Origin: a virus
Lineage: Duplodnaviria; Caudoviricetes
Reading direction: 5' to 3' (one strand)
IMG/VR virus record: IMGVR_UViG_3300032270_001987
Location: 1 to 26,233 of that record
Length of the DNA stretch: 26,233 nucleotides
The notes beneath the pieces are model-generated. The model ran no database searches, had not been told where the DNA came from, and saw only the letters and a program-made list of their open reading frames with translations. Both the position numbers and the translations under genes were made by a program. Within the stretch, counting starts at the first letter, position 1. Every line of letters starts with the position of its first letter. Below, in pieces: positions 3,966 to 23,685 of the stretch.

Positions 3966-3974
3966 ATATTAATA

Positions 3975-4580: not shown

Positions 4581-5244
4581 ATACAAAATTTTTCATATCT
4601 ACAGGTGGGTTTGATTTAAGCCAAACATTAATAACCATGACATTTCTTATGCCAGATATACATGGACTTGTTTGATGAATTACTCTTCCGGCATCAAATA
4701 TTATCAATCTATTTTCTTTGAAAGCAATTCTTTCGCGTAGCTCAATTGGGTCTAGTTTTGTCTTCAAATTTTCCCATTCAAGAGCATTGGCTTCACCAAA
4801 TACAAGCTTTGATTCAAAAAGCTCCAGAAATCCACCAACAACCTTCTCTTCGGATGGTCCATAGTAAACACAACCAGTTTCCGGACCATTGTAAATTTTT
4901 GTATCTTGGTATAAAAATGTATCTTCATCAACGTGCGGCCCAAGAAATTGTCCTGGCCCAAACGTGCGCGTCCAGTACTCAAATCCAAGAATATCTTCTT
5001 TCTTGATTGGGAGATTACTCTCCCAAATATTCCTAATTACTTTTTTTCTGAGAGTGTCCGCTGGAGACGTCCACCATCCATCCCAAAACATATACGGTGC
5101 GTAGCAACTTGCCTGTTCGTTATGGTAAGAATTGACCTCACTTGCTATTCGGCTATCGGTTTGCATTATCCCCGGGAAGAACGTTTTATCTTCAAAAACA
5201 TTAGAAAGCATTTCTGATGAAAGAAAATTATCTTTAACTATCAT
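4573..5244 (-). CDS. 2OG-Fe(II) oxygenase, prolyl 4-hydroxylase-like
   Basis: IVKDNFLS start, FEYW, HVD, GGFLEL, NRLIIFD..VIH, RNVMVINVW. Confidence 0.85.
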   Translation of the reverse strand: MIVKDNFLSSEMLSNVFEDKTFFPGIMQTDSRIASEVNSYHNEQASCYAPYMFWDGWWTSPADTLRKKVIRNIWESNLPIKKEDILGFEYWTRTFGPGQFLGPHVDEDTFLYQDTKIYNGPETGCVYYGPSEEKVVGGFLELFESKLVFGEANALEWENLKTKLDPIELRERIAFKENRLIIFDAGRVIHQTSPCISGIRNVMVINVWLKSNPPVDMKNFVYE

Positions 5245-5426
5245 TTTATTCCCCGAGCTTCTCTGTATGCAGCGAGTGCCTCTTGCTTACACCTAAATAT
5301 GTCCCTAACCACATCATGGTCCTGCAGCGGTGCGCATTTTTGCCCTGGCTTTGAAATATATGCTTCGTCTATTTCATTTCTGGAAAAAGCAGCATACAAC
5401 ATATCTGCCAACTCACGGTCGTTCAT
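5241..5426 (-). CDS. Small hypothetical protein
   Basis: Fills the gap between coupled genes. The ATG at 5426 lies 1 nt after the upstream TAA (alternative GTG at 5438). Its stop overlaps the next ATG (ATGA). Confidence 0.65.
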   Translation of the reverse strand: MNDRELADMLYAAFSRNEIDEAYISKPGQKCAPLQDHDVVRDIFRCKQEALAAYREARGIK

Positions 5427-5427
5427 A

Positions 5428-6285
5428 TTACTTGGCACTACCCAACATCGGTTGTATAAATTTTGACATCTTTTTCAGTCTTGAAACAGGAACACTGGGG
5501 TAAAGATGGTGGGTCAAATGATGAGGTATTGGGAATAGAGTAAATGGACTAAGTCGGCTCCCTTGTATTTTGGTCGTTTTATATTTATCGACAGCGTGTT
5601 CTTCTCTATCAAAAATAGACAAATGCGGCAACCAAGTTACCATTGGATAAATAATAAACATTGCCAGCATTGAGGACATGTAGCAAAACAACAACACAGA
5701 ATCAAACCCAAATATAACTAGCGAAATAAGTGTCAGGTAAAAATTTGTTATATATACTCGACATTGGCCAATATCCTTTTGATATAGATAAATAAATACT
5801 TTTGTTCTGCCGCCTAAATTCTTAATAAGTTTCATTCTTATTTTTCTTGGGAGTACAACGAATATTCGCAATAAAACCAAAAATGTTGGCATGGTAACGA
5901 TATAGGAGCGCTTACCCTGTTCTCCAAATATGGAATCTGGGTCGCGCTTAGAATTCGCATGAATATGGTGCTGTTGATGTGTTTTTCTAAATGATGCAAA
6001 ACCCATATTTAAAACAAAAGAAAAAACCTGTCCAATTAAGTCATTTATTTTTCTATTTGATGGGACTACGGCATTGTGTACTGCTTCGTGAACAGTGGAA
6101 AAAATATAGTATGAAACTATAGCGCTAATAGGCAAAGCTATCAGAAGACCATATAAATCGTTCTGGTACGCAGCAATATTTAGAATGTACAAACAAATGC
6201 TGGCAAACGAATAAATCAATATTGAAACTGATTGGGTTGATGATATTTGTTTGGCGTATTCCGCCGCTTCACTTTCGGGAATCAT
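5428..6285 (-). CDS. Membrane di-iron fatty acid desaturase/hydroxylase family protein (CrtR-like His boxes)
   Basis: Three His boxes (HEAVH, HQQHH followed by DPD, HHLTHHLYPSVP) plus WLPH, and several hydrophobic segments. Confidence 0.85.
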   Translation of the reverse strand: MIPESEAAEYAKQISSTQSVSILIYSFASICLYILNIAAYQNDLYGLLIALPISAIVSYYIFSTVHEAVHNAVVPSNRKINDLIGQVFSFVLNMGFASFRKTHQQHHIHANSKRDPDSIFGEQGKRSYIVTMPTFLVLLRIFVVLPRKIRMKLIKNLGGRTKVFIYLYQKDIGQCRVYITNFYLTLISLVIFGFDSVLLFCYMSSMLAMFIIYPMVTWLPHLSIFDREEHAVDKYKTTKIQGSRLSPFTLFPIPHHLTHHLYPSVPVSRLKKMSKFIQPMLGSAK

Positions 6286-6992
6286 AAATACTCATTATCG
6301 ACTACTGTCTTTAAGTAGTCGATTGGTATGTCAAACATTAATATCCATCTATCTTCTTTGCCCTTGTGAATAACAGAATGGCAGAAATCTCCACCGTCCC
6401 TAAACGCCACTACCCCGCCCGGTTCCCAGGTTCTCGACTCATAACCAACATCATCATTGCCAACCATGATTGAACAATCCGGGTCGCATTTAAGGCCAAT
6501 ATGAATTCTCATGATTGATGGGTCTCCGCGGTGCGGATTTATCGTTGTTCCCGGCGATAGGACGCTCAGTACTGCGTTGTTTAATTCTCCACGTTTTGAG
6601 TAATCTGCAAATAAGGACGATGTGAAAGGAAGTGTTTCTTGAAGTTTCTTCAGTCCCTCTTCATATGGCATCTTTGTCTTCATCTTCACCACCCTGCGAC
6701 CCAGTTCTTCTCCAAGACCGAGAAATTCTGCAGATTCGGGAGCCACCCCAGCCGGCATTATTCTCCATTTTTCACCACTGTAAAGCTTTATGTCATCAGG
6801 GTTATTTGGTGATTTGAGGTCATCTCTTGATATCGTCACACGCGGCACGCTCCATAACCAAAGAGCTTTTGTGTCCTCTATCTGTTTTTCGAATTCGGCA
6901 AGTATCTCCTGCCAGTTGCTTACCGCAGTAACGATAGATGGAACATCCTTGATGATGTTTTCCCAGAATTTTGGTTGTGAATCCTGAATCAA
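6282..6992 (-). CDS. Aspartyl/asparaginyl beta-hydroxylase family (AspH/LpxO-like) 2OG-Fe(II) oxygenase
   Basis: LSVLSPGTTINPHRG, MRIHIGL, RTWEPG..AFRD...HSV.H, RWILMFD. TTG start with GGGGT upstream. Confidence 0.85.
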   Translation of the reverse strand: MIQDSQPKFWENIIKDVPSIVTAVSNWQEILAEFEKQIEDTKALWLWSVPRVTISRDDLKSPNNPDDIKLYSGEKWRIMPAGVAPESAEFLGLGEELGRRVVKMKTKMPYEEGLKKLQETLPFTSSLFADYSKRGELNNAVLSVLSPGTTINPHRGDPSIMRIHIGLKCDPDCSIMVGNDDVGYESRTWEPGGVVAFRDGGDFCHSVIHKGKEDRWILMFDIPIDYLKTVVDNEYL

Positions 6993-7089
6993 AACATTAC
7001 CCCAAAAATACGGTGAATTAACACTTCCGCGAACCTAACCCATACAGTAAATATAGGCGCAAAAATTAAGCATAATATGACTTCTTTTT

Positions 7090-7119
7090 TTGACAAGTCA
7101 TTAAACATGTTGAAATAAT
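7090..7119 (+). promoter_or_regulatory. Candidate sigma70-type promoter upstream of cfa
   Basis: TTGACA at 7090-7095, 18-nt spacer, TG-n-AATAAT at 7111-7119. The -35 box lies within a 7-bp inverted repeat, ATGACTT (7077-7083)/AAGTCAT (7095-7101). Confidence 0.4.
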
Positions 7120-7147
7120 ACCATTCCATACGCAAGCGAGAGGAACG

Positions 7148-7156
7148 TGTTAGCAT
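7148..7156 (+). promoter_or_regulatory. Extended -10 box for a probable leaderless cfa transcript
   Basis: TG-t-TAGCAT ends 6 nt before ATG 7163. No Shine-Dalgarno at normal spacing. Confidence 0.5.
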
Positions 7157-7162
7157 CTATAC

Positions 7163-8287
7163 ATGTCGAAGAAATCACACAAAATCTTTACAAAGCTTTT
7201 TGAGCAAGCCGGAATACCAATTAATGGTCCTGAACCGTATTCAATACAAATTCATGATGAGCGTATATGGGACAGACTCTTGGACCAACGACTATTGGGC
7301 CTCGCGGAAGGTTACGTGGACGGTTGGTGGTCGTGCGAAAAGGTTGACCAAATGCTTACGCGTTTCACAAATATTGATTTGGCTAAGCAGATACCAATGA
7401 GCCCGAGTATTGCTATTGCCGCTTCGTGGTCGCGGATTGCAAATCGACAAAATAGAAGCCGTTCTCCCAAAAATGCTGAATTCCATTACGGTATCGGAAA
7501 TGACCTATTTGAATTAATGCTTGATGAATACATGATGTACTCATGTGGATATTGGCAAAAAGCAACAAACCTCGAAGATGCTCAAATTGCAAAAATGGAT
7601 TTAATTTGCAAAAAACTAAAGCTCAAACCAGGGATGAGAGTCCTTGATATTGGTTGTGGTTGGGGAGGATTTCTTGAATATGCAGCAAAAACATACGGCA
7701 TAACTGGAGTTGGAATCACGCCTGTAGATAAGCAAATTGAAACAGCTGTAGAACGTTGTTCTCCGTTTGATATAGAAATTCACAAAATGACATACCAGGA
7801 CCTAGATGGGCAGTTTGGAAAGTTTGACAGAATAGTATCAATAGGGATGATGGAGCATGTTGGGCCAAAAAATCTAAAGCTATTTTTTGACAAGTGCGAT
7901 GAACAGCTTATTCACGACGGAATAATGGTTCACCACTTAATTGGTTCGACCAGAGCCCGTCATGATGCAGACCCATTTTATGACCGATACATATTCCCAG
8001 GTGGCATATTACCATCAGTCTCGCAGTTTACTTCGTCTGCAGAACCAAACTGGGTGATTGAGGATGTCCACAACTTTGGAATGGATTACGCAAAAACACT
8101 TGCTCAATGGTACGAGAATGTAACTTCAAACTGGGAAAATCTTCCAAATTACGATGAGCGTTTCAGAAAGATGTGGGAGTTCTATCTTCTTTCCTGCATA
8201 GGTGGCTTTATGTCCAGAAAGTTTAATTTGTGGCAATACGTAATGCGCCGCAAAGGAATGGATTTCGAAAGATACACCTGTAGGTAG
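7163..8287 (+). CDS. cfa: Cyclopropane-fatty-acyl-phospholipid synthase
   Basis: Full-length resemblance to E. coli-type Cfa: GIPING, LGLAEGYVDGWW, HYGIGNDLF, YSCGYW, VLDIGCGWGG (SAM binding), SIGMMEHVG, YIFPGG, DYAKTL, FRKMWEFYL. Confidence 0.93.
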   Translation: MSKKSHKIFTKLFEQAGIPINGPEPYSIQIHDERIWDRLLDQRLLGLAEGYVDGWWSCEKVDQMLTRFTNIDLAKQIPMSPSIAIAASWSRIANRQNRSRSPKNAEFHYGIGNDLFELMLDEYMMYSCGYWQKATNLEDAQIAKMDLICKKLKLKPGMRVLDIGCGWGGFLEYAAKTYGITGVGITPVDKQIETAVERCSPFDIEIHKMTYQDLDGQFGKFDRIVSIGMMEHVGPKNLKLFFDKCDEQLIHDGIMVHHLIGSTRARHDADPFYDRYIFPGGILPSVSQFTSSAEPNWVIEDVHNFGMDYAKTLAQWYENVTSNWENLPNYDERFRKMWEFYLLSCIGGFMSRKFNLWQYVMRRKGMDFERYTCR

Positions 8288-8292
8288 AAACT

Positions 8293-9051
8293 TTACTTTT
8301 TAGTAAATACCGTAAACCCGTATGTATCTGAGTTGTGATACGTGTAACCATCTTTTCTATTTAGCAATTGATGCGCACCGTAGTATGGGTGCATTTTTGC
8401 ATCATCTCTATATATCTTCCCAGAATGATTAGTTGACATTACGTAGAGAACCCCATTACTGGATAGAGCATCAACGCACCTGTTGAGTATTCCCAAATCA
8501 TAAACTGAATCCCACGCTGCCACCTGGATAAAATCATAACCAGAAGCATCCCCAGAGCCAATCTCGTCTCTTTCTACAACACTGTAATCAATATCCCTGT
8601 AGGATTCTGGTCCCTCAATGATTGATGAATCTCTTGCAAATGTTTCATAATTATAAAGCGACTGGGTATTAACAAAATGTATTTCTGTTTCTGGGTGTTC
8701 GTGTTTCAGTGAATACATTGTTGTCATTGCGTCTGGAGTAAAAAATAAAGCTTTTTTAGGTAATTTTGCAAAGGCATAACTAGCCAAGGCATCATCAGAC
8801 CTTGCAAGAAGTTCCTTGAATCCGGTTTGAAAATTTGAAATAAGGTCTATGTACCAGCATCCATCGCTACCACCACGAGCAGCGATACTCATATTAAGTC
8901 CTTCTACGCTCTTTCTCCACTCGGTAACGTTTAACGCCATTTCTGATATGAGGGAAAGTATTTCCTCTGTACTGTTGGGGAAAATCGACTCAATTGGATT
9001 TTTACCAATTAGTCTGGAAACCATGGCTGTTCTTAGTTGTCTATTGTCCAT
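8293..9051 (-). CDS. Hypothetical protein with class I SAM-methyltransferase-like C-terminal region
   Basis: GYDFIQV...CVDALSSNGVLYV resembles motifs II/III, followed by a terminal beta-hairpin (TYH...GFTVFTK). No Gly-rich motif I is visible. Confidence 0.55.
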   Translation of the reverse strand: MDNRQLRTAMVSRLIGKNPIESIFPNSTEEILSLISEMALNVTEWRKSVEGLNMSIAARGGSDGCWYIDLISNFQTGFKELLARSDDALASYAFAKLPKKALFFTPDAMTTMYSLKHEHPETEIHFVNTQSLYNYETFARDSSIIEGPESYRDIDYSVVERDEIGSGDASGYDFIQVAAWDSVYDLGILNRCVDALSSNGVLYVMSTNHSGKIYRDDAKMHPYYGAHQLLNRKDGYTYHNSDTYGFTVFTKK

Positions 9052-9364
9052 TTTTTACACCCCTAGCAAGACAGTAATTCCAGTACGCGTATCTTGCGCC
9101 TTCCGTTAGTGAAACATTTTGTTTTGACAAAAACGTATGAATCTTGTTTGAACCGTATGTCGCATCGCCACCCTGGCCGCGCAAGTCGGTTGCGTATTGC
9201 CAGAGTTTTCGTAATTTGACCACAGCATAATCTATTCTCATTGAATCAACCTCTTGTGGGTCAAAACCAACTATGTATGAAATAACGGCAAGCTTTTGTT
9301 CGTGGTACAACATGTCGGCTTCTGCGTCATAGAGATTTTCTTCACCAATATTTCTAGTTTTCAT
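9041..9364 (-). CDS. Small hypothetical protein (E-x10-G-F/I-D/E motif family)
   Basis: Overlaps both neighbours; contains HEQKLAVISYIVGFDPQEVD. Confidence 0.75.
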   Translation of the reverse strand: MKTRNIGEENLYDAEADMLYHEQKLAVISYIVGFDPQEVDSMRIDYAVVKLRKLWQYATDLRGQGGDATYGSNKIHTFLSKQNVSLTEGARYAYWNYCLARGVKNGQ

Positions 9365-9665
9365 TTGAAAAAATCTCCTCTACTAATTCATTCTTGGTGA
9401 AATCACCCTGTTCGGTAGATTCCCACGCCGCCTGAGCATCACTGGATTGAAGCAAGTCACAAAAAAATGAAGCTCCGTCCGGAAGTTCAAAAGAAAAAAG
9501 ATTTGGATTCCACTTTGGGACCTGTCTGTCTCTTTTTGGATTATGCATTGGCTCCTGAATGTTTGGATATTCTGGCTCCATGTCAGGGCATATTTCATAT
9601 CTTCCTGATGCTATAGCTGTCTCGACAATTGAAATTTTTGTTGGAACATCTGGCTTTATTCTCAC
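9354..9665 (-). CDS. Small hypothetical protein
   Basis: GTG start; tiles between neighbours on the coding strand; acidic. Confidence 0.7.
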   Translation of the reverse strand: MRIKPDVPTKISIVETAIASGRYEICPDMEPEYPNIQEPMHNPKRDRQVPKWNPNLFSFELPDGASFFCDLLQSSDAQAAWESTEQGDFTKNELVEEIFSNEN

Positions 9666-9674
9666 AAAAGCCTA

Positions 9675-9908
9675 CTAACTTTGTAGTCTTGCCAGAGCCG
9701 CCAGTTGCATCTTTAAACATTCGTAAGCATCATGCTGCGCGGCCAATGAGCTGTTCTCGTTAAGAGACATATCTATTGGGTTCGCCATGTCCGCATCAAG
9801 GTCTTCGTCTTCTATGCCCAAAGTGAACGCCAATGTATAAATGGAGTATTCAAGTATTTGAATTGCCTCTGCTTTGGCATTGGCGAGCTGCTCTATGGAA
9901 AGTGCCAT
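9675..9908 (-). CDS. Small acidic helical hypothetical protein (E-x10-G-F/I-D/E motif family)
   Basis: Contains LEYSIYTLAFTLGIEDEDLD; tiles with neighbours. Confidence 0.75.
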   Translation of the reverse strand: MALSIEQLANAKAEAIQILEYSIYTLAFTLGIEDEDLDADMANPIDMSLNENSSLAAQHDAYECLKMQLAALARLQS

Positions 9909-9918
9909 GTCTTAGAGC

Positions 9919-10155
9919 TTACTCCGAGATTCTTGTTTTAACGTTATTAATCTTTGAAAGAAAATCTGCAATCAATTTATGACTATGGATAATTCCATGC
10001 CCATCATTTCCTGGGACAAAGTTTTCGGCATCAAATGAATCTGGGTCAAAGCCCTCCTGAAGGAGGCGCTCCATCAGTTGTCTCTCGAGGTCCTTTAGGG
10101 TGCGCTGATAGACAAGCTTTTTTTCTTGTGTTGTAAAAGAAGATTCAAATTTCAT
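9919..10155 (-). CDS. Small helical hypothetical protein (E-x10-G-F/I-D/E motif family)
   Basis: GGAG Shine-Dalgarno 5 nt upstream; contains LERQLMERLLQEGFDPDSFD. Confidence 0.78.
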   Translation of the reverse strand: MKFESSFTTQEKKLVYQRTLKDLERQLMERLLQEGFDPDSFDAENFVPGNDGHGIIHSHKLIADFLSKINNVKTRISE

Positions 10156-10192
10156 AGCGGCTCCATAATCCCTGTGTTGGACAAGTACCCAT

Positions 10193-10198: not shown

Positions 10199-10200
10199 CA

Positions 10201-10902
10201 CTACGGATTGGCTAATTTGGGCAGACCATCAAAACTTGGACCTATTTTATTGCCATCTGCGTCAATACCTGTACGAATTCCCTTTGTCCAAGTCCATGGG
10301 TTTTCATACCTATTTTTTGTTTTTAGCTCTCCGTACCTGACCCTCGACTCCATTAGTTCTTTATCATCCCATAGGTTTGAAGTGACTATCTCCGTATTCT
10401 CTAAAATTGAATTGTCATAAATATTAAAAAAACAAAAAGGTGTTCCGGCAGCAAAAGTGACAGGCTCTCCTATTTTTGTAATTTTCCAGTTCATTTGTGA
10501 TTCATCTGGCCACCAATAACTCGGCAATGTGGCAGTAAGCGGAGTTGCCCCATCCACAAAATAATTCGGTGAACCAGTAACCCAGGTGTTATACCCATCC
10601 TCGGTGTTTATTACCCAACCCATGTTTATGGAAATCATCCCAATAATTGACGATATGGCCTGGACTCTACCGGAAGACGTAATTTCTCCAGACAGAATGA
10701 CAGGTGGGGTGTTGCCGCCATCCCACTGAACAATCAAATCTTCCTCCATGACAATCTCCCACCCATAGACATTTGCGACAGTCATTGGGAGACATTGGTA
10801 TGCATGCTTGTTGTAGGTGTTATCCATCCACTCACGATTAAAACGGGATTGGTTTATCTCCGGAGATGTTTGATGGGTTTTTTTTAAAAATAATTTTGTC
10901 AT
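10201..10902 (-). CDS. DUF6065-like protein
   Basis: R.WMD....HAYQCLPMTVANVYGWEI signature, GSPN, MNWKIT, F..GTPFC. ATGA-coupled to the upstream oxygenase. Confidence 0.75.
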   Translation of the reverse strand: MTKLFLKKTHQTSPEINQSRFNREWMDNTYNKHAYQCLPMTVANVYGWEIVMEEDLIVQWDGGNTPPVILSGEITSSGRVQAISSIIGMISINMGWVINTEDGYNTWVTGSPNYFVDGATPLTATLPSYWWPDESQMNWKITKIGEPVTFAAGTPFCFFNIYDNSILENTEIVTSNLWDDKELMESRVRYGELKTKNRYENPWTWTKGIRTGIDADGNKIGPSFDGLPKLANP

Positions 10903-11630
10903 TTTTTGTAAATAAACCTTTCAACTTGATTCGCACTTGGGTCAACTATCCCAGGTCCATATTCGGCATCAGTGCCATCCATATTTTTCCCGTAACCCTT
11001 CCATTGCTTATGAAACCTGTCGTTGTAGTCAAACATGGTTACGGCAGCATACTTGGTTCCCCTGGTAACAGGTCTTGAAGCATGTGAATAGATAAAAGTA
11101 GATGGGAATAGGACAATATCCCCATACTTGGGTTTAAAAGTAATGTCGAGAAAAGGGAAAAACAACTCTCCACCTTCGTAGTCTTCGTTTAGATACATTA
11201 CGGAAGAAACTGTGCAAACATACGAAAAACCATGGTCTGCGTGTACATTGAAGTGCTGGCCCTCGTTGTACCTCACATAATTGATTGCCTCCATGAAGTC
11301 CATGCGGATGTTGTATCTTGATTCATAGTCCTGCAGACATGCAGTCAATCCTTTTACTGTGTCGTTATAAATATTTATCAACTCACTAAACTGAGTCGGG
11401 CAGTGCTCGAAATGTGCAGGGCTCATTTTGCAATCCACACAGTCTCTATAGTCCTTCATGACTTGGCCATCCCCAACGAGCGCCTGCATCCACGAATACG
11501 GAGGCGTATCGCTGTCGCCTATTGTCGCCTCAAGGCGCTCTGGTATTTTTAGGTTCTCATTAAGAACATTCCTATAGACTAAAAAACCAGCTTTTGGGTC
11601 CCCAATATATTCAATATCAATGTTTCTCAT
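10899..11630 (-). CDS. 2OG-Fe(II) oxygenase, prolyl 4-hydroxylase-like
   Basis: VRYNEGQHFNVHAD, YLNEDYEGGELFF, FPSTFIYSHASRPV, GTKYA (Lys at the 2OG-binding position, as in collagen-type P4H). Confidence 0.92.
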   Translation of the reverse strand: MRNIDIEYIGDPKAGFLVYRNVLNENLKIPERLEATIGDSDTPPYSWMQALVGDGQVMKDYRDCVDCKMSPAHFEHCPTQFSELINIYNDTVKGLTACLQDYESRYNIRMDFMEAINYVRYNEGQHFNVHADHGFSYVCTVSSVMYLNEDYEGGELFFPFLDITFKPKYGDIVLFPSTFIYSHASRPVTRGTKYAAVTMFDYNDRFHKQWKGYGKNMDGTDAEYGPGIVDPSANQVERFIYKK

Positions 11631-11634
11631 AGAA

Positions 11635-12168
11635 TCAAACTATAGCGCGAAACCATAAAGGAAACACCAACCTGCTTCCAGACAAAACACTGTCCACATA
11701 GTGGGAATACGAAATATCGCTAGGAAAGATAATGCAACTTCCAGCAACCGGTTGATAAGAGTAAGGCATCTTTGGAAAAACTAACTCCCCACCAGAAAAG
11801 TCATCATTAAAATAGACCACTGCCGATACGACGAAATCACTGCAACCATCCTTTGGTGTTCCATCCATGTTTTGGCTATCGGCATGTTCTTCTGGAGTAT
11901 GGCCAGGTAGAGTTTCAAATACGACCAATTTACTTTCAATTAGCTTTATCCCGAAAGATTCCTCTGCAATACTTCTGACTCTTTCACCTATGTCGCAAAG
12001 TAAACCGTATACAAAATCGTTAGCCTCAAGCATTGCTTCACCACTGTAATAAATGACACCGCTGTCACTCGAAATGGTTTTTTGGTGAACACCCATAGAA
12101 CGAATGCAGCCGACAATAGATTCGCATTCATTTTTAGAAACAAGACCGTACCTATGGAGTATCCTCAT
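11635..12168 (-). CDS. 2OG-Fe(II) oxygenase, prolyl 4-hydroxylase-like (clade B)
   Basis: HAD, YFNDDFSGGELVFP, FPSDISYSHYV, GSRL..PLWF. Confidence 0.9.
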   Translation of the reverse strand: MRILHRYGLVSKNECESIVGCIRSMGVHQKTISSDSGVIYYSGEAMLEANDFVYGLLCDIGERVRSIAEESFGIKLIESKLVVFETLPGHTPEEHADSQNMDGTPKDGCSDFVVSAVVYFNDDFSGGELVFPKMPYSYQPVAGSCIIFPSDISYSHYVDSVLSGSRLVFPLWFRAIV

Positions 12169-12172
12169 TGAA

Positions 12173-12799
12173 TTAAACTACGGAGTAAAATGATGGGGTT
12201 GTATATCTATTGCCACTTCTTATCATGGTTACACCATGTAGGTAATTGATGTCCCCTGGATGAGCGATTGCAAGTCCTGGTTTTGGCGTTACCGTTATCC
12301 CATGCTGAGGATAGAACAACTCGCCACCCTCAAAATTGTCGTTGTAGTAAAACAGCGAGTTTAAGTCGTAGTCAACGAAAGCGTTGGGCTCGCCATTATT
12401 TAGCTGCTTGTCGGCATGTGGGCGCTGCTCGATACCTGGACGCCACTTCATTATCACTGGTGGACGATGTAGTAGCTCAACGCTATAAATTTCTTCAAGC
12501 GTAGTTTGCATTTTCTTTATGTATTTTTCAATTATCTTAAAAACCGGCATCGAAAGTCTTTCCAGTATTTCGCTGCTGCACTGCCTGTCATTCCAGTAAT
12601 CTGCATTATAGAGGCATGTACCATCTTCTGCGTAGATACTCTCTTTTGAGTTGTTCCACTCATTTATGGTTGGACAAAAATCTTGGATGATAACTAGGTC
12701 TTCCTGGCTAATAAAGTTTTCAAAAATGTGTATGTTTTCTGGCCCTGAGCCAAAATGTCCAGGCTCTATTTTCCATGGGGATTCATTGCCAATTGACAT
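12173..12799 (-). CDS. 2OG-Fe(II) oxygenase, prolyl 4-hydroxylase-like (clade B)
   Basis: ENFIS, KWRPGIEQRPHAD, YYNDNFEGGELFYP, YLHGV, GNRYTTPSF. Confidence 0.92.
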   Translation of the reverse strand: MSIGNESPWKIEPGHFGSGPENIHIFENFISQEDLVIIQDFCPTINEWNNSKESIYAEDGTCLYNADYWNDRQCSSEILERLSMPVFKIIEKYIKKMQTTLEEIYSVELLHRPPVIMKWRPGIEQRPHADKQLNNGEPNAFVDYDLNSLFYYNDNFEGGELFYPQHGITVTPKPGLAIAHPGDINYLHGVTMIRSGNRYTTPSFYSVV

Positions 12800-12806
12800 G
12801 TTTATA

Positions 12807-12815
12807 ACGCTAGCA
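12807..12815 (-). promoter_or_regulatory. Extended -10 box, probable leaderless start of the 12799 gene
   Basis: TG-c-TAGCGT ends 7 nt before ATG 12799. No Shine-Dalgarno. Confidence 0.5.
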
Positions 12816-12869
12816 GGCTAGTTCGACCTGGACATGACTAAATCGTGCAATAAGACGTCCATACATGAC

Positions 12870-13001
12870 CTAAAAAACTTCGCTCTGCGTCGGCTTATTA
12901 ATGTTGAAACCCTGTTCCGAAAATGTTTTCTCCAAGGCATTGGCAATCCAAAAACCGGATGTCCTGGGTATGTGCAGGTGGTATATTTTTTTATAATTCA
13001 T
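12870..13001 (-). pseudogene. Truncated sulfotransferase paralog (43 aa; not in the ORF track)
   Basis: ATGA-coupled to the upstream sulfotransferase. Translates MNYKKIYHLHIPRTSGFWIANALEKTFSEQGFNINKPTQSEVF*, with the same 5'-PAPS loop motif as the upstream gene (YFLHIPKTSG). Confidence 0.75.
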
Positions 13002-13783
13002 TTTCTTGTTTCTATTATTTTTGCATATAGCTCTAAATCCAACTGTATTCTAGAGTTTATTTCTTTTTTATGTTGTTTACTTATTTGAAATGTTGGTTTT
13101 GGCGTTTCGTTAACTACTGAATTGTTGTTTGATATTTTAATTCCATATAAATCAAACAAAATATTGTTTATTCTTTCAACAAAAAGCGTTCTATTTTCTA
13201 CAGTTCCTATTATTATTCCATCTAACCTTTCACTTAACTCTAAATAGGACTTCGGCTTCTCAACAAAGAATGATTGATATCTAGCTTCAACTAGGTTTCC
13301 ATATAAATCCAAATATGGCTCATGTTCAATACACGCAATTTTTGAAAACAAAAAACATGACTGTGGATTATCGCACCCTGACATCCCTTCGAATTGGGTG
13401 TTGACTTCATTATCCCTACTTAGGAATAAGTCCAAAAATTCTTCTGTGAAATTTACGCCGGATTGCATAGCCGCATATTTGGCAGTACTCAAATATTGTT
13501 CAAATGGCTCCCTTATCAACGAAAAAGTTATAAGTTCATCAATAATGCTTATTGGATTACGGGCAAAGTGTCCGCAAATTATATTATATGAGTCGGATAT
13601 TTCTGGATTGAATACAAACTCAAACTCTCCAGGTACGTATACTTTTCTTTCTACATCTTGAATGTATGCATTGGGAAAATTTTTACTATTACTACTTTGC
13701 GATGCAGCAAGTAGGTCATACTGCATTTTCATCCCAGATGTTTTTGGTATATGCAAAAAATATAAATGTTTACTTTTTCTCAT
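12998..13783 (-). CDS. Sulfotransferase family protein (PAPS-dependent)
   Basis: YFLHIPKTSG (5'-PSB), ICGHF, LIREPFEQYLS (3'-PB), DNPQ, C-terminal LDLELY. Confidence 0.85.
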   Translation of the reverse strand: MRKSKHLYFLHIPKTSGMKMQYDLLAASQSSNSKNFPNAYIQDVERKVYVPGEFEFVFNPEISDSYNIICGHFARNPISIIDELITFSLIREPFEQYLSTAKYAAMQSGVNFTEEFLDLFLSRDNEVNTQFEGMSGCDNPQSCFLFSKIACIEHEPYLDLYGNLVEARYQSFFVEKPKSYLELSERLDGIIIGTVENRTLFVERINNILFDLYGIKISNNNSVVNETPKPTFQISKQHKKEINSRIQLDLELYAKIIETRK

Positions 13784-14393
13784 CCATCACAGCCATTTCC
13801 ATCAATATCCTGTGCTTTACCGGAGTCCAAAAATGTGGAGATGTGTATCTAACCCCAGATGTGACCTCTGTTACCCCATGGGCGTACATGTTTGTTGAGG
13901 GAAAAAATATTAATGTTCCGGCTTTGGGTTTTATGTGTATGTTGTATTTGGGGAAGAATAACTCTCCACCTTCATACTCTTCGTTGAGGTAGATAATCGA
14001 ACCATAATCAACTATGTAGTTATATCCAGGCCAACCGCCAGCAGTCTCTCCATCTGCGTGTATGTCTTGATATTCGCCTGGGAACCATTTTCGTATTCCT
14101 GGATTTGTTCTTTCAAGTTTTCTGCCAAACTTATATTCAACTTCATTTTGAACATTATCAACATACTGCTGCATGATTTTAAATATTTTGGGAGAATTGC
14201 TTTCAATTGAATTAGGCATATGAATACTATCTAGACCCAAAACACTTCGTGATTCCCAGTTATTCACTGAATGGCAATAATTAATTATTTCAGTAAGGTG
14301 TTCTTTGCTTATAAAATTTTCTTTTATAACTATGTTCGCCGGGTCGGCAAAAGGAAGACTGTCAAGTTCTACTGATTCGTTCCGGAAAACCAT
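13770..14393 (-). CDS. 2OG-Fe(II) oxygenase, prolyl 4-hydroxylase-like (clade B)
   Basis: ENFIS, KWFPGEYQDIHAD, YLNEEYEGGELFFP, YAHGVTEV, GVRYTSPHF. Starts 9 nt after the stop of the PPFF-repeat gene. Confidence 0.92.
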   Translation of the reverse strand: MVFRNESVELDSLPFADPANIVIKENFISKEHLTEIINYCHSVNNWESRSVLGLDSIHMPNSIESNSPKIFKIMQQYVDNVQNEVEYKFGRKLERTNPGIRKWFPGEYQDIHADGETAGGWPGYNYIVDYGSIIYLNEEYEGGELFFPKYNIHIKPKAGTLIFFPSTNMYAHGVTEVTSGVRYTSPHFWTPVKHRILMEMAVMDEKK

Positions 14394-14399
14394 CCGGAA
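14380..14399. promoter_or_regulatory. 7-bp inverted repeat/hairpin over the start codon of the first oxygenase
   Basis: The minus strand reads TTCCGGA-TGGTTT-TCCGGAA. The A of ATG is in the stem and the TG is in the loop. Confidence 0.3.
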
Positions 14400-14402
14400 A
14401 CC

Positions 14403-15113
14403 TTACTTAAATCCAGGACCGAATGGTGGAGGGAAGAAGGGTGGGAAGAATGGAGGGAAGAACGGTGGGAAAAATGGCGGAAAGAAAGGGGGGAAGAAAG
14501 GTGGGAAAAATGGAGGAAAGAAAGGAGGAAAATAAGGAGGAAAATACGGAGGGGCAACTGGAGTAACAGAGTTGGATGCTGCTGAAGTAGATGAACCAAA
14601 TGCGTTAGCGGCCGTAACGGTAAATGTATAAGCTGTTCCGTTTGTTAGACCAGTGACGGTTATTGGAGATGAACCAGTTCCAGTGATTCCACCAGGACTC
14701 GACGTAGCGGTAAAAGTAGTTACGCCTGTCCCTGCGGCTCCAGCAGTATAGGTAACAGTTGCTTGCGCGTTACCTCCAGCAGCAGAGACGCTGGTTGGTG
14801 TTCCTGGATTTTGACCAATAGCAACAGAGCCGCTCGTTACTGAATCTGAAGCCACTCCGTAATTCGTATTTGCCCTTAATGTGAATGTATAAGTTGTCCC
14901 AGCAGTTAACCCAGTTATTGTTATTGGCGAACTAGAAGCTGATGCACTAATACTTCCTGGGCTTGATGTAGCCGTATAGGTTATTGTGTCTTTCCCAATG
15001 TAATCAGAAGGAGTGAAGGCCACTGACGCAACTGTTCCTGCGCCAGTATTCGTCGCAACAACGTTTGTTGGTGTTGTTGGCTTTTTACCACCACTATCTT
15101 TTAACGATTCCAT
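14403..15113 (-). CDS. Two-FN3-domain putative virion protein with a C-terminal (PPFF)n repeat
   Basis: Two repeats of P.TPT.V.A...YTATSSPG.I....SSPITITGLT.GT.YTFT..A.N..G.S (fibronectin type III pattern), then PPYF x2, PPFF x8, PPPFGPGFK. Confidence 0.88.
   Translation of the reverse strand: MESLKDSGGKKPTTPTNVVATNTGAGTVASVAFTPSDYIGKDTITYTATSSPGSISASASSSPITITGLTAGTTYTFTLRANTNYGVASDSVTSGSVAIGQNPGTPTSVSAAGGNAQATVTYTAGAAGTGVTTFTATSSPGGITGTGSSPITVTGLTNGTAYTFTVTAANAFGSSTSAASNSVTPVAPPYFPPYFPPFFPPFFPPFFPPFFPPFFPPFFPPFFPPFFPPPFGPGFK
14433..14552 (-). repeat. 10 x 12-bp degenerate tandem repeat encoding PP(Y/F)F
   Basis: Units CCN CCN TWY TTY. All eight PPFF units differ from one another at synonymous positions. 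Confidence 0.95.
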
Positions 15114-15116
15114 GAT

Positions 15117-15893
15117 TTACGCCGAAAGGTCTCCGATGAGCACCCATGTATCGGCTGCTCGCTTTATCAGCGTAGCACCAGACCACTGAGCGCGAAGCTT
15201 ACGTCCAGGGGTTGCATTGATTGTTACACCTGCACCCTGGGTAACCGTGCACTGGCCAGCACCGGTCTGAATAACTGTAATATGCGTTCCTGTTGGGAAC
15301 ACGACAGACGAGTCAGGTGGAACCGTCAGCGTATTCGCCGAGCCAACACCCATTTCAACAATCTTATTTCTGTCAGCCAAAACCAATGTGTAGCTAGCTG
15401 CTTGCGGATTTGTTAATGGTTCTGCAAGTTTGTTTCTATTGATTGATGCCGAAAGGCTTATGTCACCATCGACGATTGTCGAGTCGGCAATCATGTCTGT
15501 TGTAATAATTCCAGAGCTAGAAAGCGTTATTGCTGTTCCTGCAATCTTTGATGCATCTATATTCGCTGAGCCCGAAATGTCTGCGTTAGTGATTACGGCC
15601 GATGCTATAGATGTAACTCCAGAAGGTGAAATGACTATGTCGCCAGTGAGCTCCTGAGCAGTAGCAGCGTTGGATGCGTTGTAGACAATGACCTTACCTG
15701 GGTCGCTATTCAGCAACTTCGTCAAAGGTACAGAGTTCGTTTGGATTGAAGAACCAGCTACCGAACCTGTATCAAAAAGAGCAGTAGGGATTGTTATAAG
15801 CACCCAACCAGAACCATTGAATACCCAGGTCTTGCCAGCATCTGTATGAAGTTGGCCTGATGTTGCGCCAGAAGGAAAGTCAATAGCTGGCAT
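15117..15893 (-). CDS. Putative virion/tail-fibre protein
   Basis: N-terminal IDFPS...GKTWVFNGSGW module, I..ADI/SKIA shaft-like repeats, and a C-terminal YTLVLAD...ATLIKRAADTWVLIGDL domain typical of phage fibre ends. Confidence 0.75.
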   Translation of the reverse strand: MPAIDFPSGATSGQLHTDAGKTWVFNGSGWVLITIPTALFDTGSVAGSSIQTNSVPLTKLLNSDPGKVIVYNASNAATAQELTGDIVISPSGVTSIASAVITNADISGSANIDASKIAGTAITLSSSGIITTDMIADSTIVDGDISLSASINRNKLAEPLTNPQAASYTLVLADRNKIVEMGVGSANTLTVPPDSSVVFPTGTHITVIQTGAGQCTVTQGAGVTINATPGRKLRAQWSGATLIKRAADTWVLIGDLSA

Positions 15894-15895
15894 AT

Positions 15896-18658
15896 TTAGG
15901 CCTGTGCTTCCGTCCAGGAGAGACGAGCAAACACGCTGGCCGAAGTAGCACCAAGGTTTCTAATAACAATGTGCAGTGTGTCTGGACCGTCAGGATAAAT
16001 GCCTGTCGTTGTTATCGTTGTGCCGCCGCCAAGTACCGAGTTACCTAAGTCTCGAACATCCTTGAGGTCGATTGAGTTTGACCCAGTACCTACGAAGAAA
16101 CCTCCAGTTACTTCACCACCAGACACTGTTGCAGCAGAACCGCCAGAGCTGTAGTCGGCAATTTGAGCCAAGCTTGATGTAACCGTATATGGTCTCGCCC
16201 ATGTTCTTGATGCTGATGGAGTTCCGTTGAGGATGGCTGTTACCAGAAGGTTTGATGCAGCAGTAGATGTGGTTACGTCCAACGCACGAAGAATCAACTG
16301 CATTCTATTTGTGAGTTCACGCTCACCAAAGAACGCACCAGTTCCGTTATCCGCGGATGGAGCAACACGAATTGCCATAATCGCAGCCGTAGCACCAGCA
16401 CCAATTGCGATTGATGTAGTTGTTCCATAAGTAAATACGAGCGACTTGTCGTCGTCGAATCTTCCGTCCATGATTGCCGAAGTACCCCAGTGAGAAATTG
16501 ATGGGGCATATGTTGGAAAGGCAAGCTCAACACCAACTGGGTTGGTTGCTGAGTACGTAAATGCTAGAGCGGCGCTTGTTCCCATTGGGATAACGTTTAC
16601 CGTTGGGTTTGCACCAGTTACAGCAGCACTCAACTTGACATTCAGCCCGGAAATTTGTTGAATAAATGTTCCGTCTGGAACGTTCGTTCCGTTTACTCTC
16701 TGCCCAACCTGCAGTCCAGCAGTAGAAGCAACAGTTCCGTCGTTGGCCCCAGAAGCAATAGTCAACGCAAGTGAAGCATTTCCTGTTTGCTGTCTAGTTA
16801 AACCAGTAAAGGTCGTAGCCGTCTTACCCGTGTAGTTGACGTACTCATAACCTGTTGCGGTATTGTATACACAAAGTGTTCCTGCGCTTGGGAATCCGGT
16901 TGTGCTTGCAACAGTAAGAGTGGTGCCAACGTTTGACAAAGATGCTGCCAGCTGCGTGAATGGAGGGTTTGAAGATGACTCATAACGAGCAGGAAGGTTT
17001 CCTGAACGCATATACGCTTCAGCATTTACGTTGTTATTTACAACTTTATGACAATAGGTTACTTTGCCATTTTTTGCGCGCATTCCCCAACGAATAAACC
17101 CAGCACCATACCAAGAATAGTCAATGTAGAACATTTGCATTCTTGAAAGGTCAACGTTGTACCCAGAAGGGCCCGTTCCGTCGAATCTATCAAGGTTCCA
17201 ATCAGCTTGGGCAACTTTTGTATCTACAGTCCGCGAGATTGTTGTCATTGATGCTGTAGCTCCGCGATATGCAGGGCTAATGGTCATTGACGTATCGCTT
17301 GCAATATCGATAACTCTGTACGACTGTCCACGAGCCACGATGTTGTCGCCAATAGCAAGTTGACCAGAATACCTAGTTGGGAAAGCGGCGTTTGTTTGAG
17401 TTACCGTGCAAGAACCGTTTGTGAATGTTGATTTTCCAGAAATTTGAAAAGTTGACGAGCGTTTTACTGCCCACAAAGTCTGACCGTCATACTCAAAGAA
17501 CACGCCGTTCTGTTGGTCAAACAAACCTATTCTGTTCACATTCCCGTACCAGCCAGAAACCGTTATGTAATATGGGCCTGATGCCAGGGCAGACGATGGG
17601 GTCGATGCTGGGGTGTATGTAAAAGTGTTGTAACCAGTAATGGTGTAAACGCTAGTTGTCCCGTTATACCCAGCTTCGTTTGCACCAAAAACAGTAATTG
17701 TCGAACCAGGATAAAGGTTGTGCTTTTCCTTGGTCTGTACGGTTACGAGTCCTGTACCAGAGCTGTATGTTAACTGGTCGAGCTGAAGGTCTGGCTTAAG
17801 AAGAGTTCCAGATGACATCTGAATACCCTTACCTGATTGGTAACGGAAGTAACGACGTGTTTGGCGTGCTGCTGTTTCGTAGTTTGATGTTCCGTTGTTT
17901 GAAAAAATAACACCGCCGTCAAATGGTCTATGCAAAAACACACCAGAAGGACATGTGTAAACAAGAGCCGATGATGCAGTTAATGTTCCGGTTGGTGTAT
18001 CTGGTACGTAAACAACAAACTGCGTTGAGCTGATAATTCTGGCTACGAAGTTTGCACCGTTTGGAGGGTTTGTTCCAGATGTAGTAACTCCAACAATTGC
18101 AACTTCATTACCAATCGAAAGACCGTGCGGTATCGTCGTTGTTACGGTTACCGCATTGCCCGAGTATGAGATAGTTGGTGCGCCACCAATGGCGGCGTTG
18201 GTAAAAATAACTCCAGTGAAAACTGCAGTCTTATTTGGGTCAAAGATTGATGTCAAGGAACCAGTGTTTACAGCTTTACCTGTGTACGAAAATGAAGTGT
18301 TTGTTGTAACAGCTTCAATTAGGTAGTTTCCGTTTGCTATTGCAAGCTGGGAGTCATACATCGAAATTGGGGTACCAACAGCAAGGCCTGACGTGCTTGG
18401 CAGCGAAACTGTTACGGTACGTGACGACGTGTTCATCGTAATTGCGGTGATTCCTGATATTGGTGAGCTGGATGCATACACAAACGGCTTATTGCCGATG
18501 GTGACCATGTTCTCCCATTTTGAAGTCTGTGTTCCATATTCAAAGTCGGTGTCAATAAGGGACTGTGGCTGTGAAACACGGAACTTTTGTACTGGGTCGT
18601 AAAGCACTTCTTCCGGTGTAATCGGAGTTACGCCAGGTGGTATTTGATTAAGACCCAT
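15896..18658 (-). CDS. Large putative virion structural protein (920 aa) with repeated small beta domains
   Basis: T/S/G-rich; repeated VTV.T...HGL..G..V.I.G modules interspersed with core motifs (FRYQSGKG, RIGLFD, DYSWYGAG, YMRSGNLPARYE). Confidence 0.75.
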   Translation of the reverse strand: MGLNQIPPGVTPITPEEVLYDPVQKFRVSQPQSLIDTDFEYGTQTSKWENMVTIGNKPFVYASSSPISGITAITMNTSSRTVTVSLPSTSGLAVGTPISMYDSQLAIANGNYLIEAVTTNTSFSYTGKAVNTGSLTSIFDPNKTAVFTGVIFTNAAIGGAPTISYSGNAVTVTTTIPHGLSIGNEVAIVGVTTSGTNPPNGANFVARIISSTQFVVYVPDTPTGTLTASSALVYTCPSGVFLHRPFDGGVIFSNNGTSNYETAARQTRRYFRYQSGKGIQMSSGTLLKPDLQLDQLTYSSGTGLVTVQTKEKHNLYPGSTITVFGANEAGYNGTTSVYTITGYNTFTYTPASTPSSALASGPYYITVSGWYGNVNRIGLFDQQNGVFFEYDGQTLWAVKRSSTFQISGKSTFTNGSCTVTQTNAAFPTRYSGQLAIGDNIVARGQSYRVIDIASDTSMTISPAYRGATASMTTISRTVDTKVAQADWNLDRFDGTGPSGYNVDLSRMQMFYIDYSWYGAGFIRWGMRAKNGKVTYCHKVVNNNVNAEAYMRSGNLPARYESSSNPPFTQLAASLSNVGTTLTVASTTGFPSAGTLCVYNTATGYEYVNYTGKTATTFTGLTRQQTGNASLALTIASGANDGTVASTAGLQVGQRVNGTNVPDGTFIQQISGLNVKLSAAVTGANPTVNVIPMGTSAALAFTYSATNPVGVELAFPTYAPSISHWGTSAIMDGRFDDDKSLVFTYGTTTSIAIGAGATAAIMAIRVAPSADNGTGAFFGERELTNRMQLILRALDVTTSTAASNLLVTAILNGTPSASRTWARPYTVTSSLAQIADYSSGGSAATVSGGEVTGGFFVGTGSNSIDLKDVRDLGNSVLGGGTTITTTGIYPDGPDTLHIVIRNLGATSASVFARLSWTEAQA

Positions 18659-18969
18659 TATGCTATCTCCATCCCGCTGATGTGGAATTTAACGTCTGTG
18701 CTATTCGCATTTCCAGTTATTACATCGCCAGCTTCAACGACTTGCTTCAAGTCGAGCGAAATAACAGAGTTGCCAGGAATTTCCAAAGCAGGGACAAGCA
18801 CTACTCCGTCAATACTTATCGTGTAAAGACCACCAGTTGTGCCATTGTTTGAAACAACAATATTCGTCACAACTGTCGTAGTGAGGGATGGCACTGTGTA
18901 CAGGGTTGTAGCGGGTGACGTATAGACGCTTGCCGCACCCCTGAAAAGAACTTTTGCCGTATTAGCCAT
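18658..18969 (-). CDS. Small beta-rich putative virion protein
   Basis: TLYTVPS...VTNIVVSN...LKQVVEAGD...FHISGMEI; GGAG Shine-Dalgarno; TAATG coupling to the next gene. Confidence 0.8.
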   Translation of the reverse strand: MANTAKVLFRGAASVYTSPATTLYTVPSLTTTVVTNIVVSNNGTTGGLYTISIDGVVLVPALEIPGNSVISLDLKQVVEAGDVITGNANSTDVKFHISGMEIA

Positions 18970-18985
18970 TACTTACTCCAGTCAT

Positions 18986-21802: not shown

Positions 21803-21978
21803 TAAGCACTTCCTCCGTCGGCGATTGACAGTTCATCTTCGATTTCTACTGGTGAGAAACCACCGTCAATTATCGCATATTTAATTCTTTTCCAGAACGA
21901 CCCATTCCAGGACCAGGCTTTCCCAGCAACTAAAAACTCAGCATCCATTGACGGAGAGGAAGGGAAAGTGATTGCCAT
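21802..21978 (-). CDS. Small putative virion protein (58 aa; not in the ORF track)
   Basis: Translates MAITFPSSPSMDAEFLVAGKAWSWNGSFWKRIKYAIIDGGFSPVEIEDELSIADGGSA*. TAATG-coupled to the 938-aa gene; resembles the N-terminus of the 15893 protein. Confidence 0.8.
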   Translation of the reverse strand: MAITFPSSPSMDAEFLVAGKAWSWNGSFWKRIKYAIIDGGFSPVEIEDELSIADGGSA

Positions 21979-21985
21979 ACGGGCA

Positions 21986-21994
21986 ATTATCTCA
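21986..21994 (-). promoter_or_regulatory. Extended -10 box, probable leaderless start of the fibre operon
   Basis: TG-a-GATAAT ends 7 nt before ATG 21978. Confidence 0.45.
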
Positions 21995-21998
21995 CATT

Positions 21999-22241: not shown

Positions 22242-22260
22242 GATGCAAACTTACTATAAA

Positions 22261-23684: not shown

Positions 23685-23685
23685 C

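Follow-up and report, generated by a model that had tools for sequence, protein, structure and literature searches.

The virus record IMGVR_UViG_3300032270_001987 (Caudoviricetes), here called the window, is 26,233 bases long; the window is the whole record, with no genome beyond it. On its minus strand, a protein ending in a Pro/Phe repeat is followed directly by a cassette of 2-oxoglutarate (2OG)-dependent Fe(II) oxygenases and a DUF6065 protein. We lean, with modest confidence, toward the reading that this cassette hydroxylates the PP/FF repeat of a putatively virion-associated protein. The repeat travels with a core trio of genes: a Lys-type oxygenase (family 0), an Arg-type oxygenase (family 2) and DUF6065. 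The genes of the cassette, in their order on the minus strand, are as follows.

14403..15113, minus strand: protein with two FN3 domains and a C-terminal Pro/Phe repeat, the candidate substrate; last gene of the tail/fibre block
14433..14552, minus strand: (PPYF)2(PPFF)8 repeat, residues 188-227, in ten different codon strings
13770..14393, minus strand: 2OG-Fe(II) oxygenase OG_a, family 2, HAD...H, Arg-type; first gene behind the repeat gene
12998..13783, minus strand: sulfotransferase-like protein with HIPKTSG and REP motifs, PF03567-type by motifs and homologues; optional
12870..13001, minus strand: remnant of a second sulfotransferase, 43 codons, homologous to the intact gene in L049
12173..12799, minus strand: 2OG-Fe(II) oxygenase OG_b, family 2, core; H128-D130-H188, R198; P3H1 is the best PDB sequence match
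11635..12168, minus strand: 2OG-Fe(II) oxygenase OG_c, family 10; present in the closer kin of the window
10899..11630, minus strand: 2OG-Fe(II) oxygenase OG_d, family 0, core; H130-D132-H183, K193; prolyl hydroxylases are the nearest folds
10201..10902, minus strand: DUF6065, core (E 1e-42), with a predicted dUTPase-like fold and the motif RxWMxxTxxxHAYxCxP

The open reading frame (ORF) at 14403-15113 encodes 236 residues with two fn3 domains (PF00041, E 6e-11). Its C-terminus consists of two PPYF units, eight PPFF units and PPPFGPGFK, and the next gene begins 9 nt further on. An earlier note on this DNA had described this ending of the last virion-block gene and the start of the enzymes 9 nt on, and both are confirmed in the sequence; the prolyl 4-hydroxylase (P4H)-like, sulfotransferase, truncated sulfotransferase and DUF6065 genes that it listed were all found on the same strand, with gaps of -14 to 198 nt. 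The ten repeat units mix synonymous codons, and because no two share a codon string the repeat is taken to be kept at the protein level; an origin by DNA slippage is ruled out by this codon diversity.

Oxygenase families were defined by clustering 981 distinct sequences from 329 loci, which placed OG_d in family 0, OG_a and OG_b in family 2 and OG_c in family 10. We estimate from 7 of 64 parts of IMG/VR that (PPFF)3 is matched in about 1,100 of its stretches; 125 stretches were fetched, 80 of them with flanks. Removal of 23 loci with <6 kb downstream and of one duplicate left 56 repeat-anchored loci. Within 8 kb downstream of the repeat, all three core genes are present in 38 of the 56, two in one, one in four and none in 13. 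Of the 13 trio-less loci, L018 and L042 carry the cassette on the upstream side, and L010 and L011 carry it at another place of the contig next to a Pro/Phe gene; most of the remaining ones lie on contigs rated 5-50% complete by CheckV. The complete 455-kb record L046 lacks DUF6065, and no PPFF ORF is called there either. For the reverse direction, a motif scan for DUF6065 (about 1,800 stretches) supplied 80 loci with flanks, 45 of them with at least 7 kb upstream. A PP/FF-type repeat on unrelated carriers is found in all 45: a strict Pro/Phe repeat in 38, and (PP-x-FF-x)n or short PPYF/PPSF variants in the other seven. The co-occurrence of the repeat with oxygenases and DUF6065, which the earlier note had put forward as a check, thus holds in both directions. 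The OG_d gene is the immediate upstream neighbour of DUF6065 in 172 of 206 cases, and between the two phage clades OG_d retains about 38-47% identity against 23-29% for DUF6065.

The carriers of the repeat are varied and include FN3, PASTA-like (by eye) and long tail proteins. The repeat is terminal, or in kin stands ahead of Hint-like, Peptidase_S74 or Cys-rich parts, and the unit spacing drifts among kin (PPFF, PFF, PPxFFx). Since the carriers are otherwise unrelated, the repeat is the feature common to them. Loci of a DUF6065 paralog, located by a DNA motif in about 2,500 stretches, contain a Pro/Phe repeat in only 6 of 46 cases with at least 5 kb upstream, and families 0/2 occur in 3 of the 72 paralog-anchored loci lacking PP/FF repeats (L311 and L333, which have other PP repeats, and L328). 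A tally of distinct FN3 carriers with 6 kb of downstream sequence has the complete trio behind 56 of 64 PPFF, 9 of 9 PPxFFx, none of five GFTPF and none of three Gly-rich proteins; it mixes differently anchored samples, and its DUF6065-anchored rows contain DUF6065 by construction. In a tree of 81 carriers, switches between PPFF and PPxFFx are recurrent with the trio kept, and the four GFTPF rows form one clade (Shimodaira-Hasegawa-like approximate likelihood ratio test, SH-aLRT, 98) nested in the PP/FF clade (96).

The cassette oxygenases display the 2OG-Fe(II) double-stranded beta-helix fold with its HxD...H ligands (PF13640; the OG_d model has a predicted local distance difference test score, pLDDT, of 86), with OG_b falling under the Pfam cut-off (E 0.0012). 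The metal ligands H130, D132 and H183 of OG_d are invariant in 46 of 46 sequences. The 2OG-ligand position is equally fixed, as K193 in OG_d and R198 in OG_b (46 of 46 each), and is Arg in OG_a, OG_b and OG_c. The Lys of P4Hs binds the C5 carboxylate of 2OG, and a Lys is visible in the BaP4H alignment. The nearest folds of OG_d, at 15-20% identity, are an algal P4H with (Ser-Pro)5, which ranks first, PHD2, a Bacillus P4H and the chlorovirus enzyme vCPH, and its best profile match is the Bacillus P4H (E 5e-8). The profile of OG_b finds human prolyl 3-hydroxylase 1 (P3H1) as its best PDB match (E 1.8e-8), followed by BaP4H (1.4e-6). The cassette oxygenases are stand-alone proteins of 177-243 residues, and the helical/TPR substrate-recognition domain described for prolyl 3-hydroxylases (P3Hs) in passages of PMC4396695 is absent from them.

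The DUF6065 model (pLDDT 87) has a dUTPase-like beta fold at 8-14% sequence identity. Its top Foldseek matches are the trimeric dUTPases YncF/YosS of B. subtilis (E 2.5e-4; template modelling score, TM, 0.66 by target length). Trimeric dUTPases have five conserved motifs, which, judged by eye, are not recognisable in the DUF6065 alignment; the invariant residues there are R23, W25, M26, T29, H33, A34, Y35, C37, P39, N44, G47, G62, N113 and G221. Identification of DUF6065 as a true dUTPase was rejected. A profile search returned 1,842 proteins among 8,000 scored, and all 120 matches listed are named hypothetical. In 5 of 24 loci scanned, bacterial DUF6065 has a gene for aminoacyl-tRNA editing (PF04073) as its neighbour; where a chromosomal copy adjoins PF04073 (L220, L225, L226, L227, L229), a thioredoxin-TPR gene is often present as well and an oxygenase is not nearby.

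The sulfotransferase is an optional part of the cassette, present in 5 of the 56 repeat-anchored loci. Enzymes that use 3'-phosphoadenosine 5'-phosphosulfate (PAPS) bind the 5'-phosphosulfate through H-x-x-K/R-T-x-G and the 3'-phosphate through R-x-P...S, and motifs of this type are invariant in 8 of 8 sequences. A match to heparan sulfate 6-O-sulfotransferase is collinear but weak (E 0.035). The gene listed in the earlier note is present, with no Pfam match of the protein's own: the window protein gives none at the PF03567 cut-off, which 3 of 5 homologues from other cassettes pass, and PF03567 is found in 34-64% of the members of its Atlas neighbours at 0.95. The PF03567 family is mainly carbohydrate-directed. 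The 198-nt gap of the cassette holds the 43-codon remnant of a second sulfotransferase, which is intact in L049, L052 and L125; contigs of runs X2 and X4 lack positions 12851-13001 altogether, and this second copy appears to be decaying or in the course of deletion. Given the rarity of the sulfotransferase, its carbohydrate-type family and the loss of the second copy, sulfation as a core step, as the earlier note had it, is not supported.

Some kin have another transferase. The second module of the relative G448 (L498:336-4795) begins with an FN3 protein with (APPTF)n and a Cys-rich tail, followed by a small DUF6171-like Cys protein, a family-0-like oxygenase (36-39% identity), a PF11397 N-acetylglucosamine (GlcNAc) transferase, another oxygenase and PhyH. 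In L441 a PF11397 gene lies directly behind the repeat gene. The family is also found in loci without PP repeats (L249, L272) and is absent from the window. PF11397 includes Thr-directed enzymes, and we take Gnt1 to belong to it; by its composition, the APPTF repeat of G448 would offer Thr to the PF11397 enzyme as well.

If the cassette hydroxylates the repeat, carrier and trio would be products of one late operon, and the oxygenases would act on the PP/FF stretch, presumably a polyproline-II-like rod, before the carrier joins the virion. The Lys-type OG_d and the Arg-type OG_b and OG_a may act at different Pro-Pro positions, as P4H and P3H do on collagen. DUF6065 would be a helper with a dUTPase fold, either a scaffold or an enzyme of another kind. 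The optional sulfotransferases (here) or PF11397 GlcNAc transferases (in some kin) could decorate the hydroxyls or a glycan. The purpose would probably be to lend stiffness or solubility to a very hydrophobic surface tether, or to mask it. A promoter and terminator scan of 8000-19000 gave counts at or below chance (13 against 23 expected, and 11 against 10) and is therefore uninformative on co-transcription.

Several observations weigh against this reading. Passages of PMC4396695 describe a Tyr shared by all P4Hs and, where the active site opens, an Arg shared by every P4H and P3H; the Tyr (Tyr140 of CrP4H, Tyr310 of PHD2; PMC4396695 and PMC9676403, in part) lies three residues ahead of the first metal His, and the Arg corresponds to Arg161 of CrP4H and Arg322 of PHD2. 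The Tyr position, mapped by sequence and not by superposition, is Phe in 179 of 188 family-0 members and Gln in 157 of 171 family-2 members. The Arg position, mapped by counting from the Y-x-N motif and from the OG_d, OG_b and OG_a alignments, is Cys in 147 of 188 and Tyr in 135 of 171, respectively. At these two positions OG_d has Phe (46 of 46) and Cys (35 of 46), OG_b has Gln and Tyr (46 of 46), and none of the four window cassette oxygenases keeps the signature Tyr and Arg. The label 'P4H-like' used in the earlier note is therefore valid for the fold, with prolyl hydroxylases as the nearest solved relatives, and not for the chemistry. Judged by their sequences, the oxygenases resemble prolyl hydroxylases in fold and cofactors and appear to fail P4H membership. 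Because their pockets are without these two signature residues and are lined with invariant aromatic ones, Phe may be a target as well, and the residue modified would be Pro or Phe.

The remaining points concern the comparative evidence. The co-occurrence counts are not independent, because the loci belong to related phages, and the missing trio beside GFTPF carriers is one loss event and hence a single contrast. No PP repeat is in view at L328, which nevertheless has a family-0-like oxygenase, and the DUF6065 gene of the GFTPF-type phage G425 lies about 14 kb from the GFTPF repeat gene, with no repeat in the 13 kb read. DUF6065 exceeds the cut-off in 23 of 401 Pseudomonadota genomes, a tally that includes the unpublished G407. 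Neither an oxygenase nor a Pro/Phe repeat occurs within 1.5 kb on either side of full-length Pseudomonadota DUF6065 in the 24 loci scanned, and as these copies sit in housekeeping surroundings, DUF6065 outside phages needs no repeat. The window has 11 2OG enzymes and lipid-type enzymes against one simple repeat, so most of its accessory genes must act elsewhere, and G448 holds one PPFF gene. The chlorovirus precedent is weaker than the earlier note stated: in the passages of PMC7019647 that treat the PBCV-1 P4H, its role is given as unknown and hydroxyproline as undetected in purified virions.

Much of this would fit a purely positional linkage, in which the repeat is an unmodified structural tether and the late operon of this phage group happens to end in an oxygenase island, whose targets would be glycans, lipids, small metabolites or further fibre proteins. 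We hold this to be unlikely, yet it is the strongest of the alternatives. It draws on the 11 2OG enzymes of the window with their accompanying desaturase, cyclopropane synthase and Asp/Asn hydroxylase, on the carbohydrate-type family of the sulfotransferase and on the replaced signature residues, and DUF6065 paralogs with other oxygenases also stand behind tail genes in many phages that lack the Pro/Phe repeat. Iyer et al. (2010) described tandem dioxygenase arrays of cyanophage Syn9 and took such cyanophage arrays as secondary-metabolite enzymes (PMC2938197, section 12). Position alone, however, would not lead one to expect that the trio tracks PP/FF repeats across non-homologous carriers and in two distant clades while missing beside GFTPF and Gly-rich carriers in the same slot, or that the second PP-repeat gene of G448 has its own family-0 enzyme.

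The oxygenases might instead modify host proteins. Candidate targets are translation factors such as EF-Tu, in the manner of bacterial P4Hs; this might ease Pro-Pro translation, and the link to the repeat would be indirect. Among the fold neighbours of OG_d are a Pseudomonas P4H in complex with EF-Tu and a Bacillus P4H whose entry title gives EF-Tu as its target, and the editing gene beside some bacterial DUF6065 copies points in the same direction. A single host target, however, needs no paralog series directly behind a repeat gene, and the first-ranking fold of OG_d is the peptide-bound algal P4H; we regard host targets as quite improbable. Least probable is the alternative of the earlier note, a multi-core precursor of ribosomally synthesised and post-translationally modified peptides (RiPPs) cut into PPFF-containing, perhaps cyclic, peptides and then tailored: the cyclic peptides antamanide and cyclolinopeptide A contain PPFF and tailoring-type enzymes are adjacent, but the repeat is uninterrupted behind folded FN3 domains with zero spacer or recognition sequences between units, is often internal, between folded domains or ahead of the S74 fibre chaperone, drifts in unit spacing, and is accompanied by no peptidase, cyclase or exporter family among 31 window proteins or 30 cluster representatives, several family-less members of which could hide one.

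Hydroxylation of the repeat by the cassette, as the earlier note proposed, thus keeps the co-occurrence, the fold and the repeat common to unrelated carriers, and loses sulfation as a core step, the RiPP variant and P4H chemistry. A more ambitious version is tentative, and we doubt that it holds in full: in actinobacterial freshwater phages, a multi-enzyme line dedicated to a polymer of Pro and Phe would oxidise both prolines and possibly Phe through prolyl-hydroxylase folds with rebuilt pockets, with DUF6065 as a scaffold and swappable glycosyl- or sulfotransferases, yielding a densely modified, extensin-like virion tether whose repeat and enzymes are exchanged as a module. In that case the phage arrays of 2OG oxygenases, long without an explanation, would have their first concrete substrate.

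Outside the viral set, a similar PPFF pattern was found in 12 stretches of 185,579 prokaryotic genomes, and the convincing ones are phage-like contigs. A bacterial counterpart of the repeat was considered and rejected: L205, L208, L209/L215, L211 and L212 lie on phage-like contigs that also have tail genes, and the rest are apparent chance frames. Those loci come from metagenome-assembled genomes of GTDB, show the same cassette where the contig extends and are probably mis-binned. By these searches, the Pro/Phe repeat appears to be essentially phage-specific.

The slot of the last tail gene is occupied by other repeats in further phages. In L263, L281, L292, L297 and L332 it holds (GFTPF)n, followed by DUF6065 paralogs and a different enzyme set. 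Alternative repeats in this slot are (PPYV/PPPV)n, (NPPPYYNPYD)n, (NPYNPC..)n, Gly-rich and Tyr/Pro/Asn-rich sequences, and the loci with them (L311; L333; L278; L285, L291, L320; L249, L250) likewise have DUF6065 paralogs and enzyme sets of their own. A prophage-like region in a bacterial genome (L242:7445-11690, G080) contains a tail gene, a Pro/Tyr/Asn-rich protein, a 2OG oxygenase and two DUF6065 paralogs, which make a minimal cassette in a phage that seems to be unrelated. In G425 (L489:5303-6779) a lone divergent DUF6065, with HAY changed to AVY, lies beside a weak Sulfotransfer_1 match.

The remainder of the window comprises three further regions.

15117..26233, minus strand: tail-fibre and virion structural genes upstream of the FN3 gene, with PHROG matches (context)
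8293..10155, minus strand: four small conserved ORFs and a 252-residue protein of unknown function; continuation of the cassette in the clade of the window
1..8287, strand not assigned: extended accessory island with six further 2OG oxygenases, an Asp/Asn beta-hydroxylase, a fatty acid desaturase, a cyclopropane synthase and an NAD-binding protein

Most neighbours in 15117-26233 have PHROG tail or virion matches, the FN3-repeat protein itself has no PHROG match, and its virion location is suggested by these neighbouring genes. The enzymes listed in the earlier note are present, but the block is larger than it described: 1-8287 adds seven 2OG enzymes together with the desaturase and the cyclopropane synthase. 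The cyclopropane synthase is on the opposite strand, and the lipid-type genes of the island occur in only some kin. The relative G448 (170 kb, CheckV 100%) has a baseplate-J gene and a glycosyltransferase/epimerase cluster preceding its fibre genes. WhiB is carried by 4 of 5 large relatives, which points to an actinobacterial host for the phage group. Sequencing runs containing window DNA are labelled freshwater, lake or plain metagenome; a contig of a possible source run is identical to the window over 12829-15200 and does not constitute independent evidence. Searches of INPHARED phages by tblastn with the DUF6065 or FN3-PPFF protein gave no match, hence no cultured representative was found.

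An unrelated feature was observed in relatives outside the lineage of the window, where CGGN is apparently read as one Gly in the presence of an odd tRNA-Gly. Its examples are located as follows.

L160, L163, L165, L175, L187, L197, L198: PPFF genes broken at CGG
L509:5570-10731 and L506:3117-3497: examples from the relative G445 (loci L503-L511)
L505:3707-3780: tRNA of G445

Among 72 distinct tail-end/PPFF gene pairs, 20 out-of-frame PPFF genes have an in-frame CGG before the first stop (19 in +1, one in +2); four other out-of-frame PPFF genes lack an in-frame CGG, and one intact gene has one. Intact homologues (L037, L015) show one Gly at the place of CGG. In G445, 10 minus-strand ORFs and one plus-strand ORF stop at most 35 codons after CGG and continue for at least 100 codons in +1, against none in G448. 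Within the first 40 kb of G445, plus-strand ORFs contain 16 in-frame uses of CGG, and early genes are apparently spared from the recoding. When CGGN is read as Gly, three pieces join into 1,719 residues and L509 tiles with gaps of 2-11 nt; one of the ten CGG steps in nine G445 genes has an intact homologue, a VanY-family peptidase, with Gly opposite. A first tblastn frameshift screen (450 of 960 queries), which missed short N-terminal pieces, gave seven candidate joints, one of them at CGG. The anticodon arm of the G445 tRNA-Gly, GCATGCTTCCGACCTGC, can be drawn with an 8-nt loop and the anticodon UCCG, complementary to CGGA. The odd tRNA-Gly core (arm CATGCTTCCGACCTG) is present in 31 of 35 viral matches of a motif scan (loci L517-L551), in two GC groups including a low-GC one, and CGG breaks of this kind occur in 19 of the 31 tRNA-core loci, many of which are near-copies. 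In the lineage of the window, CGG serves as an in-frame Arg codon (9 of 292 Arg codons). We infer four-base decoding of CGGN or programmed +1 recoding; a +1 slip at a slowly read CGG would give the same picture. No paper on a natural four-base codon in a phage genome stood among the titles listed, and the CGGN/tRNA-Gly pair, if confirmed, would be a natural four-base decoding system.

2OG-Fe(II) oxygenases are frequent accessory genes of aquatic phages with unknown substrates, and the module described here names a candidate substrate that is small enough for a synthetic peptide and involves three small enzymes. By sequence comparison, the module is real, widespread and phage-specific; its chemistry is putative, and the substrate hypothesis is directly testable. 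If correct, it would mean phage-encoded hydroxylation of a virion protein, a prolyl-hydroxylase fold whose selectivity is new, and a first role for DUF6065.

In the literature covered, which leaves out most subscription journals, no paper was found on the PPFF repeat, DUF6065 or this enzyme combination, and the accessible part of bioRxiv 10.64898/2026.02.18.706586 mentions phage 2OG oxygenase only generically. The trimeric dUTPases YncF/YosS resemble DUF6065 in fold, whereas DUF6065 has about 100 extra residues, very low identity and another conserved motif. In the Skp1 PhyA/Gnt1 pathway of Dictyostelium and Toxoplasma, prolyl hydroxylation is followed by addition of GlcNAc to hydroxyproline (PMC11570480, in part). 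The PF11397 genes behind PP-repeat genes in G448 and L441 recall this order, but the Skp1 pathway modifies a single regulatory site of a cytosolic protein, and the window has no such gene. The chlorovirus PBCV-1 P4H (vCPH, PDB 5c5t) is a small viral 2OG oxygenase with the fold of OG_d (rank 5, E 1e-9) that hydroxylates Pro-containing peptides in vitro, according to passages of PMC7019647. It is a single enzyme of a eukaryotic virus, whereas the window phage has several paralogs, clustered behind a Pro/Phe repeat and carrying other residues in place of the P4H Tyr and Arg.

Two known systems come closer in organisation. Collagen P4H and P3H1 (leprecan) are matched in the window by a Lys-type enzyme closest to P4Hs, an Arg-type enzyme whose best PDB sequence match is P3H1, ahead of BaP4H, and adjacent prolines in the candidate substrate; the window lacks the Gly-X-Y triple helix, the TPR/helical domain and the signature Tyr and Arg, and the similarity is confined to the catalytic core (E about 1e-8). 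Bacterial operons that would hydroxylate and then sulfate collagen-like or tail-collar proteins were predicted by Iyer et al. (2010), in passages of PMC2938197. They share with the window the co-encoded low-complexity or tail protein, 2OG oxygenases and a sulfotransferase, and differ from it in the Pro/Phe repeat and DUF6065, which do not appear in those passages of the main text. The general idea has thus already been predicted for bacterial operons, with no paper found on this phage module. New here are the reverse co-occurrence test, the contrast between repeat types, the failed P4H signature, the P3H-like second family and the optional nature of the sulfotransferase.

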